Source of the DNA: Chiloscyllium plagiosum
Taxonomy: Eukaryota
DNA: 33,103 nt
Assembly (NCBI RefSeq): GCF_004010195.1
Contig: NC_057719.1
Location: 41,543,774 to 41,576,876, forward strand
Direction of reading: 5' to 3'
In this document: positions 7,635-33,103 of the stretch, piece after piece
Position numbering within the stretch: the stretch's first letter is position 1
Layout: every line of letters starts with the position of its first letter
Notes under the pieces: generated by a model
The model's database searches: none
What the model saw: the letters and a program-made list of their open reading frames with translations, nothing else
What the model was told of the DNA's origin: nothing
Translations under genes and position numbers: made by a program

Positions 7635-7835
7635 TAGTTCAGTTAATGGTCAATGGTCACCCTAGGATACTGCCTTAATATAGAATTCGCCAGCTTCCAA
7701 ATCTACCCACCCCTGCCTCATCTCAGGTCTAGCCCTCCCTCTCTCCAACACCCCCTTGACCTGACCTCACCTGTCCATCTTCCTTCCCACATATCTGCTT
7801 CCTTCCCACTGACCAATAATAATCACATCCTACCT

Positions 7836-9367
7836 GAGGATTTCACTAAGGAGAGGAACATGATGAATCTTGAGATTAGAGATAGAAGTTTGATTAGTCT
7901 GGATCATGTTGACATAAGTATGGAAGATGCGTTGGGTATGTTAGAGGTTACTAAGGTGGACAAATCCCCAGGACTGGATAGGATCTATCCCAGATTGCTG
8001 AGGGAGGCGAGAGAGGAAATAGCTGCGGCCCTGACTGATATCTTTGTGGCATCTTTAAACACAGGTGAGGTGCCGGAGGACTGGAAGATTGCTCATGTTG
8101 TCCCCCTATACAAGAAGGGTAGCAGGGATATTCCAGGTAACTACAGACCAGTGAGACAGACGTTGGTGGTGGGAAAGTTGTTGGACAGGGTACTGAGGGA
8201 CAGGATCTATTTATATTGAGAAACGAATGGGCTTATCAGTGATAGGCAACATGGTTTTGTGCAGGGGACATCATGCCTTACCAACTTAATAGAGTTCTTT
8301 GAGGAAGTGACCATGTTAATAGATGAAGGAAGTGCTGCTGATGTCATATACTTGGACTTTAATAAGGCATTTGATAAGGTTCCCCATGGTAGACTAATGA
8401 AGAAAGTGAAGTCATATGGTGTGCAGGGTGTTCTAGCTAGGTGGATAAAGAACTGGTTGAGCAACAGGAGACAGAGAGTAGTAGTTGAAGGGTGTTTCTT
8501 GAAATGGAGAAAGGTGACCAGTGNNNNNNNNNNNNNNNNNNNNNNNNNNNNNNNNNNNNNNNNNNNNNNNNNNNNNNNNNNNNNNNNNNNNNNNNNNNNN
8601 NNNNNNNNNNNNNNNNNNNNNNNNNNNNNNNNNNNNNNNNNNNNNNNNNNNNNNNNNNNNNNNNNNNNNNNNNNNNNNNNNNNNNNNNNNNNNNNNNNNN
8701 NNNNNNNNNNNNNNNNNNNNNNNNNNNNNNNNNNNNNNNNNNNNNNNNNNNNNNNNNNNNNNNNNNNNNNNNNNNNNNNNNNNNNNNNNNNNNNNNNNNN
8801 NNNNNNNNNNNNNNNNNNNNNNNNNNNNNNNNNNNNNNNNNNNNNNNNNNNNNNNNNNNNNNNNNNNNNNNNNNNGTGCAGAGAAGGTTTACGAGGATGT
8901 TGCCTGGTATGGAAGGTGCTAGCTATGAAGAGAGGTTGAGTAGGTTAGGCTTATTTTCATTAGAAAAAAGGAGATTAAGGGGGGACCTGATTGAGGTTTA
9001 CAAATTCATGAAGGGTATAGACAGGGTGGATAGAGACAAGCTTTTTCCCAGAGTGAAGGATTCAATAATGAGAGGTCACACTTTCAAGGTGAGAGGTGGA
9101 AGGTTTAAGGGGGATACATGTGGCAAGTACTTCACACAGAGAGTGGTGGGCGTTTGGAATGCATTGCCAGCAGAAGTGATACAGGCAGACATGGTAGATT
9201 CATTTAAGATGCGTCTGGACAGATGCATGAGTAGGTGGGGAGCAGAGGGGATACAGATGCTTAGGAATTGGGTGACAGGTTTAGACAGTAGATTTGGATC
9301 GGCTCAGGCTTGGAGGATCGATGGGCCTGTTCCTGGGCTGTAAATTTTCTTTGTTCTTTGTTCTTTG
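7836..9367 (+). mobile_element. CR1 LINE, 5'-truncated RT region to 3' tail, spanning an assembly gap
   Basis: KSPGLDRIYPRLLRE, VPEDWKIAHVVPLYKKG..PGNYRPV, SCLTNLIEFFEEVT, YLDFNKAFDKVPH, VQRRFTRMLPG, RRLRGDLIEVYK. (TTCTTTG)n tail. Possible TSD TACCT at 7831-7835 and 9368-9372. Confidence 0.95.
8524..8875. other. Assembly gap (352 N)
   Basis: Run of N. Confidence 1.
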
Positions 9368-12274: not shown

Positions 12275-12811
12275 ATCCATGCTGACCAGATATCTCTACC
12301 TAATCTAGTCCCCACTTGCCAGCACCTGGCCCATATCCCTCCAAATCCTTCCTATTCACATACCCATCTGGATGCCTTTTAAATGTTACAATTGTACCAG
12401 CCTCCACCACTTGCTCTGGCAGCTCATTCCATACACGCACCACCCTCTGTGTGAAAAAGTTGCCCCCTAGGTCTTTTTTATATCTTTCCTCTCTCACCCT
12501 AAACCTATGCCCTCTAGTTCTGGAGAACCCCACAGGGAAAAGACTTTGTCTGTTTATTCTATCCATGCCCCTCATGATTTTATAAACCTCTATAAGGTCA
12601 CCTTTGACACTTTGACACTTGAGGGAAACCAGTCCTAGCATATTCAGCCTCTTCCTATAGCTCAAATCCCCTAATCCTGGCAACATTCTTGCAAATCTTT
12701 TCTGAACCCTTTCAAGTTGCACAACATCCTTCCGATAGGAACAAGACAAAAATTGCATGCAATATTCCAAAAAGGTCTGTTTCCGTGCAGTACATCTCTA
12801 TGACTCTATGT
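12275..12811 (-). mobile_element. CR1 3' fragment with inverted body (12275-12771 minus; tail 12772-12811 plus)
   Basis: ORF 12300..12770(-) EYCMQF..LERVQKRFARMLPGL..GDLIEVYKIMRG. The adjacent plus-strand tail ggtctgtttccgtgcagtacatctctatgactctatg matches the tail at 29950-29995. Confidence 0.92.
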
Positions 12812-22352: not shown

Positions 22353-23596
22353 AGGATTTGCTGGCATTTGGAAAGGCAAAGACTCATTTAGAATAGTCAG
22401 TATGGCTTTGTGTGTGGGAAATCATGTCTCACAAGTTTGACTGAGTTTTTTGAAGGCATGACAGCAAAGTTAATGAGGTCAGTGTTGACAAGGTACCACA
22501 TGGTAAGTTGAGTAAGGTTAAATCTCATAGGATCCAAGGACAGCTAGCCAACTGGATACAAAATTGGCTTGACAGTAGAAGATGGAGGGTGGTGGTAGAG
22601 AGTCATTTTTCAGACTGTGTCACAGGGATTGGTGCTGGGTCCACTATTATTCATTATTTACACATATGATTTGATGAGAATTTAGGAGGTATGCTTAGTA
22701 AGTTTGCAGATGACACAAAGATTGGTGGACAGTAAAGAAGGTATCTGGGAATGCATTGAGATCTTGATCAACTGGGCCAGTGGACTGAGAAATGGCAGAT
22801 GGAGTATAATTTAGATAAATGCAAAGTATTGCATTTTGATAAACCAACTAGGGGAGGACTTACACAACCAATGGTAAGGCCCTGGGGAGTGTTACAGAAC
22901 AAAGAGATCTGGAGGAACAGATTCATAGCCATTTGAAAATGGAGTCACAGGTAGAAGAAGGTGAAGAAGGCTTTTGGCAAGCTAGCTTTAATTTGTCAGA
23001 TCATTGAATATGAGATGCAACATCTTGTTGCAGCCATACAAGACATAGGCAAGGCCATATTTCAAGTAATGCATGTAGTTCTGGTCACCCAACTATAGAA
23101 AGGATATTATTAAACTAGAAAGAGTACAGAAAAGATTTACAAGGATGCTACCTGGACTGGAGGTTATGAGTTATTAGGAGAGATTCGTTAGACTGAGACT
23201 CTGCTCTCTGGAGCATAGGAGATTGAGAGGTGACCATATAGAGACATATCAAATCATGAGAGGCATAGATAAGGTAGATAGTGGACAGCTTTTCCCCATG
23301 GAATGGGAGTCAAAAACTAGAGGACATAGGCTTAAGGTGAAAGGGAAGAGACACAAAAGAGTCTGGAGGGGCAACCTTTTTTCACACAGAGGCCTGGAAT
23401 GGGTTGCCAGAGGTAGTGGTGGAAGCAAGTATAATTTTGTTATTTAAGAAACATTTATACAGGTACATGAGTGAGATAGGTATGGAGGGATATGGACCAA
23501 AGACAGGCAAACTCGTTTAAATTGTGAAACCCGGGCAGCATGGGCACGTTGGGCTGAAGGGCCTGTTTTCATGCTGTCAAGCTATACGACTCTATT
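22353..23596 (+). mobile_element. CR1 LINE RT region to 3' tail (degraded)
   Basis: YGFVCGKSCLTSLTEFFE, GLVLGPLLFIIY, SKFADDTKIG, LERVQKRFTRMLPGL, RGDHIETYQIMRG. Tail gggctgaagggcctgtttt..gactctat. Confidence 0.92.
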
Positions 23597-27454: not shown

Positions 27455-28778
27455 GGGGTAGTGTTTCTGCTGTTTCATCAGTTAGATAGTCCTTCTTACA
27501 CTGGTGGGGTCTTTATCAGAGGTGGGAATCCCACCAAATCTCTACACTGCCCCTCAAGTGATAACTCAAACTAGAGAAATGGTGTAGGAGTCAGACACAT
27601 TAGAGGGCCAGGTGAACATTCTACCCCATTGAAGACAGAAATACCAGTTTGTACAAGAACAGAAGAAATGGGAATTGAAGTAGATCAGATAGTTAATCAA
27701 GCGTGATCCACCATTCAAAAGTCAGCCTAAAAACTAAAACTCTCTCTCTCAGTTATGGAATTTTCGTTAAGCTAAAAATGGTTCAATTTCCAGAATTCTC
27801 GAACAAATCTTGAAGTTGCATTATTTACTATTCTGGATCACAAACAACTTAAAATAAACTAAAGTCCATTAATTTTGAAGCCAGGCCGCAAAACTGCCTT
27901 TAAAATAAATCATCATGGTTACAGAAATGCTTATAACTTCATTATTAAATTTTGGCACACCAAAAACCCCCAGTTATTAACTCAAAAAAGAAATCCAAGC
28001 TTACAACATTTAACATTAAAATTTATACACATAAATTCCACAGTTTATATCACACCTGAGAGACTAAAAATCTACCTATTTCAGCTTTGTAAGTACTTAA
28101 TACAGGAGTATCCAGTATTCTCTAGTGTAGAGAATTCCAAAGATTCATAATCCCTTTGAGTGAAGTCATTTCTTATTTCTCAGTTCGAAACAAGCAGCTT
28201 TTTATCTTGAAGTTGTGCTTCTGTTTTTTAGATTCCCCATCAGTGGAAAAACTCTGTTAGCATTTACCCTGTCAAATCCTCTTAGAATTTTATGTTTCAA
28301 TGAGGTCACCTCTCATTATTCACAAAACCATTCGCAGTATTCCAGCTGTGTTCTGACTGCAGCCTTGTACAGTTTTAGCAAACCTCCCTATTTTTTACAC
28401 CACTCCCTTTCAACTGAAGTCCAACATTCCATTTGCCTTCCTTACTATCCATTGAACATGGATGCAAGTTTTTTTGTGAATCATGAATGAGCCATCCCAA
28501 ACATGTCTATTCTATGGCTTTCTGCAGTCTTTCTCCATTTAAAAAAAAATGAAGTTCCATTATCCTTCCTAACAAAGACCATAACCTCACATTTACCCAC
28601 ATTATATTCCATCTGCCAAATATTTGCCCACATCCTTAACCTGTCTATATTCCCTCTGCAGACTCTGTGTCATCCTCACCACTTGCCTTCTCACCTATTT
28701 TTGTGTAATCCATAAACTTGGCTCTAATTCATTCACTTTCCTCATCAAAGTCATTAATATATGTTGTAAATAATTGTG

Positions 28779-28970
28779 CTGAAACTTTATTGCTGGAACA
28801 GCACAGCAGGTCAGGCAGCATCTAGGGAACAGAAGATTCGACGTTTCGGGCACATGCATGTGCCCGAAACGTCGAATCTTCTGTTCCCTAGATGCTGCCT
28901 GACCTGCTTTGCTGTTCCAGCAATAAAGTTTCAGCTTTGATCTCCAGCGTCTGCAGACCTCACTTTCTCC
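28779..28970. mobile_element. Young PLE hairpin insertion containing a spacerless 158-bp palindrome
   Basis: Arms 28778-28856 and 28857-28935 with one mismatch. Perfect 14-bp TSD TGTAAATAATTGTG at 28765-28778 and 28971-28984. Confidence 0.92.
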
Positions 28971-29013
28971 TGTAAATAATTGTGGCCCAGCGATGCTCCC
29001 TGTGGCACATGAC

Positions 29014-29989
29014 CTGTTTAAGAAAGGTGGTAAGGACAAGCCAGGAAACTGTAGACCAGTGAGCCTGACGTCGGTGGTGGGCAAGTTGTTGGAGGGAATC
29101 CTGAGGGACAGGATGTACATGTATTTGGAAAGGCAAGGACTGATTCGGGATAGTCAACATGGCTTTGTGCGTGGGAAATCATGTCTTACAAATTTGATTG
29201 AGTTTTTTGAAGAAGTAACAAAGAGGATTGATTAGTAAGGCATTCGACAAGGTTCCCCATGAGAGACTGATGAGCAAAGTTAGATCTCATGGAGAACTTG
29301 CCATTTGGATATAGAACTGGATCAAAGGTAGAAGACAGAGGGTGGTGGTGGAGTGCTATTTTTCAGACTGGAGGCCTGTGACCAGTGGAGTGCCACAAGG
29401 ATCAGTGCTGGGTCCACTACTTTGCATCATTTATATAAATGAATTGGATGTGAGCATAAAAGGTATAGTTAGTAAGTTTGCTGATGACACCAAAATTGGA
29501 GGTGTAGTGGACAGTAAAGAAGGTTACCTCAGATTACAACGGGAACTATAGGGAGAGATTGAGTCGGCTGGGGCTGTTTTCCCTGGAGCGTCAGAAGCTA
29601 AGGGGTGACCTTGTAGAGCTTTATAAAATCATGAGGGGCATGGATAGGATAAATAGATAAAGTCTTTTCCCTGGGGTGGGGGAGTCCAGAACTAGAGGGC
29701 ATATGTTTAGGGTGAGAGGGGAAAGATATAAAAGAGACCTAAGAGGCAATTGTTTCACTCAGATGGTGGTACGTGTATGGAATGAACTGCCAGAGGAAGT
29801 GGTGGAGGCAAGTACAATTGCAACATTTAAGAGGCATTTGGATAGATATATAAATAGGAAGAGTTTGGAGGGATATGGGCCAGGTGCTGGCAGATGGGTC
29901 TAGATTGGGTTGGACTATCTGGTCCGCATGGATAAGTTGGACCGAAAGATCTGTTTCCTTGTTGTACATCTCTATGGCTCTATGACTCT
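29014..29989 (+). mobile_element. CR1 LINE RT region to 3' tail, with internal deletions
   Basis: LFKKGGKDKPGNCRPVSLTSVVGK, QHGFVRGKSCLTNLIEFF, SGVPQGSVLGPLL, SKFADDTKIGG. (CTCTATGA)n tail. TSD or microhomology ATGAC at 29009-29013 and 29990-29994. Confidence 0.95.
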
Positions 29990-30739: not shown

Positions 30740-31703
30740 CCAAATTATTTTTACACAGTTTTTATCACTTTTCCATTCCCCAATTTCTCCTGTTTACACT
30801 TCTAACTGTTTCTAAAGTATTTACTTCAGTCACTCTTTTTCTTTTTATATATTTATAAATGCTCTTACAATCTGTTTTTATATTCCTGGCTAGTTTACTG
30901 ACAAATTTTATTTCTCTTTTTATCCCTTTTTATTAACACCTTGGTGACCTTTTATTGACCTTTCTCAGTCTTCTGACTTGCCACTGTCTTTTTGAGACAT
31001 TATAAGTCTTTGCTATTAATTTAATACCGTACTTAACTTTCCCAGTGAGTTTTGGAAGCGTCTATTTGTTGATGTGTTTTATAAAGGAAAGTATCTTTTC
31101 AATATTTTGAATTATTTATTTAAATGCTCCTTGCTTATTTACACCATACCATTTAATCTGTTCATCCAATCAACCTTAAGATGGCTCTTCCGTCCTATCC
31201 AACTAATTGGTCTTATTTAAGTTTAAGATTCTTGTTTGTGATTGGAGTAAAGCACGTTCAAACTTAAAATGGAATTTGAGTGGGAGCAGCGTCGAAGGTA
31301 AAAGCGAACCCGGGAGACTACAGCAAAGGTAAGACAGTTTGTTTTAAAATTGCTTACCTGTAGCGGGCAGCGGTGTGTTTTTTTTACTCTCTCTCCACAG
31401 AAAGAGCGGGAGCAGCAGAGGAAGTGACGGCAAGCAGAGGGGCAGCCGGGAAGGAAAAGTGAGTATATAAGTCAGGCACCCACCCTCCTCCTCTAACCTT
31501 CTTAACTACTCTGCTTTTTCTTTTAAGGTAAGGATTTTTATTTCTTTACCAGGGACTAGTTAAAAATTTACTTTGTTTTTTTTTGTATGTGTGTGTATAC
31601 ATCAAGTCCTTATTTAGGGTAAAAAAAAACGAGAGCAGAGAGGTATCAGAAGGTATTCTAATTCATACTTGTACAAAGTAACTAATTAACTAACTAAGCA
31701 GAG

Positions 31704-32659
31704 ATGGCTGGGCAGGTGATGTGTTGTTGCTGTATGATGTGGGAGCTGGCTGATCCCATTGTGAACGGCAGTGACCACATCTGCAGCAAGTGTTGGTTGC
31801 TGGAAGAACTCCGGATCAGAGTTGATGATCTGGAATCTGAGCTTCAAAAACTGCGGCACATCCGGGAGGGGGAGAGTTACCTGGACACTTTGTTTCAGGA
31901 GGCAGTCACACCTGGGAGATTAAGTAATTCACATCCAGTTAGTGATCAGGGACATCAGAGTGTGACTGTAAGGCAGGTAGGGGGAACCGGAGTTCAGGAG
32001 TGGAGGAGCCTCAGCCCTTAACCTTGTCCAACAGGTACGAGATTCTTGCTCCCTGTACAGATGAGGAAAAGGGTTCTGGACAGGATGAGCCAACTGACCA
32101 AGGCACCATGGTCCAGAAGGCCATTCAAGAGGGGGGAGCTAATAGACAAGTAGTGGTTATAGGGGATTCTATAATTAGGGGGACAGATAGTATCCTATGC
32201 AAGCCGGATCGGGAGTCTCGTATGGTGTGTTGCCTGCCCGGTGCCAGGGTGCGAGACATGTCCGACCGTCTTGAAAGGATATTGGAGCGGGAGGGGGAGG
32301 ATCCAGTTGTTGTGGTCCACGTTGGTACCAACAACATAGGCAAGACTAGGGTGGAGGACCTGTTTGGGCATTATGAAGCACTAGGCAGGAAATTGAAACA
32401 CAGGTCCTCAAGGGTCATAATCTCCGGATTACTGCCCGAGCCAAGTGCCAATTGGCATAGGGACAAGAAAATTAGGCAAGTAAACACGTGGCTAAGGGAT
32501 TGGTGTGGGAAAGAGGGATTCCACTTCATGGGGAATTGGCATCAGTTTTGGAACAGGGGGGATCTGTACCATTGGGACGGTCTCCACCTGAACCGATCAG
32601 GTACCAATATTCTAGCGAAGAGGATAAATAGGATGGTCAGTAGGACTTTAAACTTCTGA
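31704..32659 (+). CDS. CR1 ORF1p: zinc finger, coiled coil and SGNH esterase; one frameshift at ~31946-32021
   Basis: CCCCMM..HICSKC followed by LEELRIRVDDLESELQKL (31704..). In the second frame: LSNRYEIL, VIGDSIIRG, CLPGARVRD, VHVGTNN, DGLHLNRSG (32000..32659). Confidence 0.9.
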
Positions 32660-32694
32660 GTTGGGGGGAAGGGAAAGTCAAAGCGACAGGGAGT

Positions 32695-33103
32695 ATGGAG
32701 GTAAATGGCAAGATAAGCAGCAGGATAGAATGTTTCCAGGCGGATTTAAAATTGAGGCAGACTGAGAATGCAGTAAAAAGCAAGGATAACTTAGGACATA
32801 TGACTTCCAAAATCTCTAATGATAAGGAAGTTAGCATTAAGGCACTTTACCTGAATGCTCGTACCATACATAACAAAGCCGATGAACTAATGACACAGAT
32901 AATAGTGAATGATTATGATGTAGTAGGCATCACAGAGACTTGGTTACAGGGGGGTCAGGACTGGCAGTTAAACCTCCATGGTTTTTCAACTTATCAAAAA
33001 GACAGAGAGGTGGGCAGAGGGGGTGGGGTTGCCTTGTTAGTTAAGAACAAAATTAAATCTATGGTATTGAATGACATAGCGGCGGATGATGTGGAGTCTG
33101 TGT
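32695..33103 (+). CDS. CR1 ORF2p N-terminus (APE endonuclease), partial and absent from the ORF track
   Basis: MEVNGKISS..IKALYLNARTIHNKADEL..YDVVGITETWL..DREVGRGGGVALLVK..VESV with no stop to the window end. The frame is open from 32644. Confidence 0.92.
   Translation, partial: MEVNGKISSRIECFQADLKLRQTENAVKSKDNLGHMTSKISNDKEVSIKALYLNARTIHNKADELMTQIIVNDYDVVGITETWLQGGQDWQLNLHGFSTYQKDREVGRGGGVALLVKNKIKSMVLNDIAADDVESV

Follow-up and report, generated by a model that had tools for sequence, protein, structure and literature searches.

Comparison of nine related lineages indicates that the ORF1/ORF2 junction of a CR1-type LINE in Chiloscyllium plagiosum carries a real, deeply conserved recoding-type signal, and that this signal is most likely a -1 frameshift site. 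We put the probability that ORF2 is reached by programmed -1 frameshifting on U_UUA_AAC, giving an ORF1-ORF2 fusion, at about 75%. Such a fusion had been proposed in a first-pass annotation of the window, the 33,103-nt stretch of DNA analysed here (GCF_004010195.1, NC_057719.1:41,543,774-41,576,876, forward strand); it is now supported at the sequence level, and the frameshifting itself is what we infer. The translation of ORF2 in two-ORF LINEs is an open question for which reinitiation is the standing model. If true, frameshifting would provide a second answer, would predict a fused esterase-endonuclease-reverse transcriptase protein, would explain ORF2s that lack an AUG, and would change the design of retrotransposition assays and annotation for CR1, which the available text describes as the principal repeat family in chicken.

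The layout of the junction in the window copy is given in Table 1. ORF1 matches Pfam Lipase_GDSL_2 (E = 1.9e-13), with PDB 4c1b as its closest solved relative (E = 6e-43), and we identify the element as a CR1-type LINE from its ORF1 homologues and its architecture. The ORF1 frame ends ACT TTA AAC TTC TGA, and the position and X_XXY_YYZ phase first given for the heptamer are correct. The -1 frame had been described as opening after a TAG and running into the endonuclease without a stop; it does so, with 153 stop-free codons up to the window end and a match to Pfam Exo_endo_phos (E = 3e-07). A 4-base deletion near 31972 breaks ORF1 of this copy, and translation from its ATG halts at 32019-32021. 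Since its own ORF1 stops at 32021, the window copy would not bring ribosomes to the heptamer, and the frameshift question therefore concerns the family, whose sister copies have a 321-codon open ORF1, and not this single copy. The family is young (98-100% identity; 40 copies scored out of 2791 candidates), and the presence of the heptamer in all 30 nearest copies is, at 98-100% identity, uninformative on conservation. A single heptamer is likewise no proof, because heptamers alone are frequent in the window DNA: TTTAAAC occurs five times on the + strand and twice on the - strand, and the XXXYYYZ pattern has about 100 matches per strand.

Table 1. Features of the CR1 copy and related elements, in window coordinates.
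Feature	Position	Strand	Remark
CR1 copy 5' untranslated region	31271..31703	+	start approximate; longest sister-copy alignments begin at 31271-31279
ORF1, Cys-rich N-terminus and SGNH esterase	31704..32659	+	broken in window copy
DGLHL motif of ORF1 esterase	32576..32590	+	heptamer-independent anchor
TAG closing the -1 frame	32641..32643	+	one codon upstream of heptamer; equal distance in 85/90 family copies
Slippery heptamer T_TTA_AAC	32647..32653	+	X_XXY_YYZ phase with ORF1
ORF1 stop TGA	32657..32659	+	one codon past heptamer
Conserved G motif GGGG(G)NNGGGA	32664..32674	+	+11 to +21 past heptamer; putative stimulator
ORF2 in-frame ATG, strong context (A at -3, G at +4)	32695..32697	+	only in window family; 32/35 modal-length copies
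ORF2 in -1 frame: variable linker, then APE endonuclease	32647..33103	+	motif-I Asn at 32854; extends beyond window
Five further decayed LINE ORF2 3' fragments	7647-9343, 12312-12770 (-), 22553-23511, 28056-28785 (-), 28927-29903	where marked	similar to the reverse transcriptase tail of the window family

Junctions for comparison were found through the DGLHL motif, independently of the heptamer. From 392 records, 333 were unique; 12 without a neighbour and 7 with N or a short flank were dropped, leaving 314 in 46 clusters, and 23 bacterial loci had been left out before clustering. The nine lineages are the eight clusters with at least four copies together with one metagenome locus (L162), the ORF1 end of which resembles those of proteins P0042 and P0050. 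They share 41-84% amino-acid identity, eight of them come from one genome, and their ancestry is common; L208 is based on 4 copies and L162 on one. The remaining 37 clusters comprise 1-2 decayed copies each. A pattern search with the junction motif gave 1315 matches. Among non-shark DNA loci, one of ten in metagenomes was usable (L162), none of 13 in prokaryote genomes, and none on viral contigs. The heptamer was exact in 11, one mismatch away in 11 and neither in 8 of 30 single decayed copies; the corresponding figures for a sample taken in genome order (n = 29) were 18, 6 and 5. Two variants recur among the small clusters, T_TTC_AAC in five of them (junctions L341, L343, L346, L363, L386 and L391) and T_TCA_AAC at L310, L330, L340 and L360; these are either mutation hot spots or tolerated variants of the shift site.

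The first-pass annotation had made its proposal depend on conservation of the heptamer and its -1 phase in the family, and both recur in all nine lineages (AAC in eight). The base before TTA is T in 9/9, where it serves as the third base of Thr, Gly, Val, Arg, Ile or His codons. The Leu codon of the heptamer is TTA in every lineage, without synonymous variation, a codon found elsewhere at only 3 of 65 Leu positions; other invariant Leu sites show 3-4 synonyms among the nine. The Asn codon is AAC with the exception of the 4-copy lineage. Among control codons, not one had a single third base common to all nine lineages (0/60 in ORF1 and 0/45 in the endonuclease; 0/105 together). As the lineages are related, these counts are not independent trials, and the controls carry equal ancestry. 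The signal stands beyond chance because silent bases are fixed across lineages, not because of any single heptamer. These patterns indicate that the constraint at the junction acts on nucleotides.

We also considered whether the fixed bases could reflect protein constraint on a Leu-Asn pair at the end of the esterase combined with shared descent, or polymerase slippage adding an RNA base. Leu171 and Asn172 are indeed invariant in alignment A2 and the lineages are related, but the synonyms at other invariant Leu codons and the absence of any fixed control codon already disfavour constraint and descent. Slippage sits poorly with runs just three bases long and with RNA reads that contain no added base, and we judge this explanation as a whole to be very improbable. 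The raw RNA reads (run X19) cover the junction to a depth of about 7-8 and derive from related copies; no splice joint or indel was found in them at the junction, which at such depth shows little.

The ends of ORF1 proteins bear on the same point. A DGxH motif lies near the end in 219 of 240 ORF1 homologues; 197 of the 219 end in Leu-Asn (118 of these being one family), nine in Ser-Asn and one in Gly-Asn. The Leu-Asn ending lies 22, 26, 27, 28, 31, 32 or 39 residues from the motif, and since this distance varies over seven tail lengths, Leu-Asn tracks the end of the ORF and not the fold. Source labels of the homologues, known from proteins alone, include sharks, rays, coelacanth, sturgeon, a teleost, frogs, turtles, squamates and a sea cucumber, and the named ones are chiefly from sharks and rays. 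Invertebrate homologues (P0085-P0095, P0083) end in Ser-Asn or Gly-Asn; the latter, seen at the protein level, could encode G_GGA_AAC. Three CR1-type ORF1 proteins carry the labels bacterium (P0030), flatworm (P0060) and cyanobacterium (P0099), likely through host contamination in at least some of the records. Protein P0012 ends Leu-Asn-Tyr, resembling the extra codon of the window family.

Modal distances from the heptamer to the motif-I Asn of the endonuclease are 207, 144, 165, 201, 150, 144, 159, 150 and 105 nt, seven different linker lengths that are all multiples of three and place ORF2 in the -1 frame in 9/9 lineages. The linker is open in this frame, in keeping with the original proposal: modal copies have on average 0-1.5 stops in the -1 frame versus 3-9.5 in the +1 frame, although both modal copies of L208 have stops in the -1 frame. 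Small decayed clusters are in phase in 7 of 16 cases, as random indels would give. The constancy of phase bears on the idea that the motif serves some other purpose at the RNA or DNA level, such as ORF1p binding, splicing control or packaging, and that ORF2 comes from spliced or internally started RNA. Fixation of silent sites reveals a role at the nucleotide level without specifying which, and G runs are typical protein-binding sites. However, this idea does not predict a -1 phase maintained in every lineage over seven linker lengths, no splice acceptor AG common to the lineages was found, and the few RNA reads, shallow and from related copies as they are, contain no joint; we regard it as having a slim chance of being correct.

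Going upstream from the heptamer, the -1 frame meets a stop after 1-5 codons in five lineages and after 13-46 in the other four, and no majority ATG occurs there in any of the nine. Dual coding from an upstream start was ruled out on these grounds, and such an overlap cannot account for the fixed bases. No in-frame esterase-endonuclease protein was found among 143 new representatives. Two long open frames (1591 and 1456 residues) were rejected as fused in-frame copies because they are runs of N, and proteins P0121 and P0122, which read from the esterase into the FKL frame, appear to be single broken copies and not a fused lineage.

When the heptamer is set against the ORF2 ATG, as the annotation had suggested, the heptamer is kept and the AUG is not. 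A fixed linker AUG is present in three of nine lineages (L082, L001 and L112, at codons 4, 17 and 28), one of which carries a TAATG stop-start. In L122, L125, L129, L208 and L162, no Met before endonuclease motif I is shared by a majority of copies, and L185 is mixed. Codon 4 reads CTG, ACT, ATG, AAT, GTA, ATC, ATT, GTA and GAA across the nine. A missing AUG does not prove frameshifting, since production of human L1 ORF2 reportedly does not depend on its own AUG. The main rival to frameshifting is reinitiation: ribosomes that terminate on ORF1 could restart near its stop, at an AUG where there is one or, as has been reported for L1, at some other codon, with TTTAAAC and the G motif as coupling signals. 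Reinitiation is the known route for SART1, where UAAUG coupling leads to ORF2, and has been proposed for L1. It would suit the TAATG lineage, the strong-context ATG 36 nt past the ORF1 stop in the window family, the lack of a classical stimulator, and the stop that directly follows the heptamer in the other eight lineages. Against this, no start-like codon common to the nine lineages was found at the ORF1 stop, and a SART1-type start there occurs in only one of them. Reinitiation also leaves unexplained both the three fixed bases before the stop in exact X_XXY_YYZ phase and the fact that the open frame begins at the heptamer, not at the stop. We consider it unlikely. The window family alone has an extra codon before the stop (TTC TGA at 32654-32659), while older copies read TTG TGA, TTA TGA and TAG TGA (L352, L361 and L368); because of this additional codon, the heptamer has outlived the loss of the adjoining stop.

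The first-pass annotation had further proposed the downstream G tracts as a stimulator, possibly as a quadruplex, and this held in part. In the window copy, a 9-nt spacer separates the heptamer from a run of six G (32663-32668), followed by GGG at 32671-32673 and 32689-32691. Across the lineages, G is found at +11 to +14 and +18 in 9/9 and at +15, +19 and +20 in 8/9, with A at +21 in 9/9. The bases at +11 and +14 fall on third codon positions of ORF2, so conservation of the G tract extends to silent sites; the ORF1 control uses GGG at 22 of its 69 Gly codons, and the endonuclease at 5 of 23. The quadruplex fared less well. A two-tier quadruplex adjoining the heptamer was predicted by ViennaRNA in 3 of 10 representatives, the window family not among them, and a three-tier quadruplex in that family was rejected, as just three separate GGG tracts are present. 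No stable downstream hairpin or pseudoknot stem was detected in the ten representatives (40 z-scores against shuffles, -1.04 to +2.08), Rfam and tRNA scans gave no match, and the fetched flanks contain no C-rich tract, at a position common to the lineages, that could pair with the G motif. What the sequence comparison offers as a candidate stimulator is the G motif itself, unstructured and lying at +11 to +21 from the heptamer. The fixed motif is of interest by itself, because, according to the available portion of a 2016 review (PMC5009743), frameshift stimulation by G-quadruplexes was not then known in nature.

Under programmed -1 frameshifting, the Leu and Asn tRNAs on UUA AAC would slip back to pair with UUU AAA and decoding would pick up at CUU, giving the junction peptide ...SRTL[N/K]LLSWGEGK.... 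This would yield a protein joining esterase, endonuclease and reverse transcriptase, in small amounts relative to free ORF1p. Pausing may be promoted by the adjoining ORF1 stop and by the G motif, which would probably act by binding a protein or by forming a weak quadruplex of two tiers, and not through a hairpin. In the window family, the AUG at 32695 may offer an additional route to free ORF2p. The absence of a hairpin, the restricted occurrence of the quadruplex and the strong-context AUG of the window family count against frameshifting, as do the inexact or missing heptamer in most of the 30 single decayed copies and the failure to find an in-frame fused protein among the new representatives. 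More tentatively, esterase CR1 LINEs of jawed vertebrates in general, and probably of further groups, might make a Gag-Pol-like fusion by -1 frameshifting that needs no hairpin. Its driver would instead be an unstructured G motif, 10 nt beyond the shift site, that either is recognised by a trans-acting protein or folds into a small quadruplex. This would be a natural type of stimulator not yet described; we regard the generalisation as possible but doubtful.

The heptamer and its phase are identical to those of the coronavirus (IBV-type) signal, and the fusion of a structural ORF to a polymerase ORF is akin to retroviral gag-pol frameshifting. Unlike the coronavirus signal, CR1 has no downstream pseudoknot or hairpin, and its 0-frame stop lies at or one codon past the heptamer. 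The fixed distance at which the short linear motif follows the shift site recalls PRRSV nsp2, whose stimulator has a spacer of about 10 nt, although the analogy is our inference. As described in the text available, PRRSV nsp2 frameshifting is stimulated by an nsp1beta/PCBP complex on the linear motif CCCANCUCC at a set spacer; the CR1 motif, in contrast, is G-rich, and its binding protein is putative where that of PRRSV is known. The accessible part of PMC5009743 counts U_UUA_AAC among the heptamers at which mammalian ribosomes shift most readily into the -1 frame.

Among LINEs, a precedent is that of the Dictyostelium non-LTR retrotransposons TRE5-A and TRE3-A, which are stated in the available part of PMC5911963 to require a -1 frameshift for ORF2; that part contains no shift site or experiment for them. 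These elements are likewise APE-type LINEs, but they belong to another clade and another host, whereas CR1 has a canonical heptamer fixed across animal lineages and an esterase ORF1. Like SART1 and human L1, CR1 would have a bicistronic LINE RNA, and one lineage also has TAATG. Most CR1 lineages differ from SART1 in having no start codon at the stop, and from human L1, with its ORFs 63 nt apart, in that the ORFs overlap in -1 phase. ORF1 shares the SGNH esterase domain with ORF1 of ZfL2-1, a member of the CR1 clade (the structure noted above; PMC3905857). The accessible text of that paper does not mention a frameshift or a route to ORF2 translation.

We found no report of CR1 frameshifting in the literature searched, in the portions accessible (including PMC5911963, PMC5006619, PMC4255032, PMC3905857, PMC7618843, PMC5972666, PMC3708506, PMC2881922 and PMC3894237), and the available part of the recoding review PMC5009743 does not name CR1. 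Earlier remarks on the overlap may exist in the chicken and turtle CR1 papers of 1997 and in Repbase notes. Frameshifting as such is a known mechanism, here proposed for a LINE clade in which the texts searched do not report it.

Two minor observations concern the surroundings of the junction. At L065, an inverted duplicate of the G motif has been inserted just upstream of the heptamer, probably by template switching. Elsewhere in the window, a decayed frame at 535-1299 on the + strand presumably resembles the reverse transcriptase end of Penelope-like elements.
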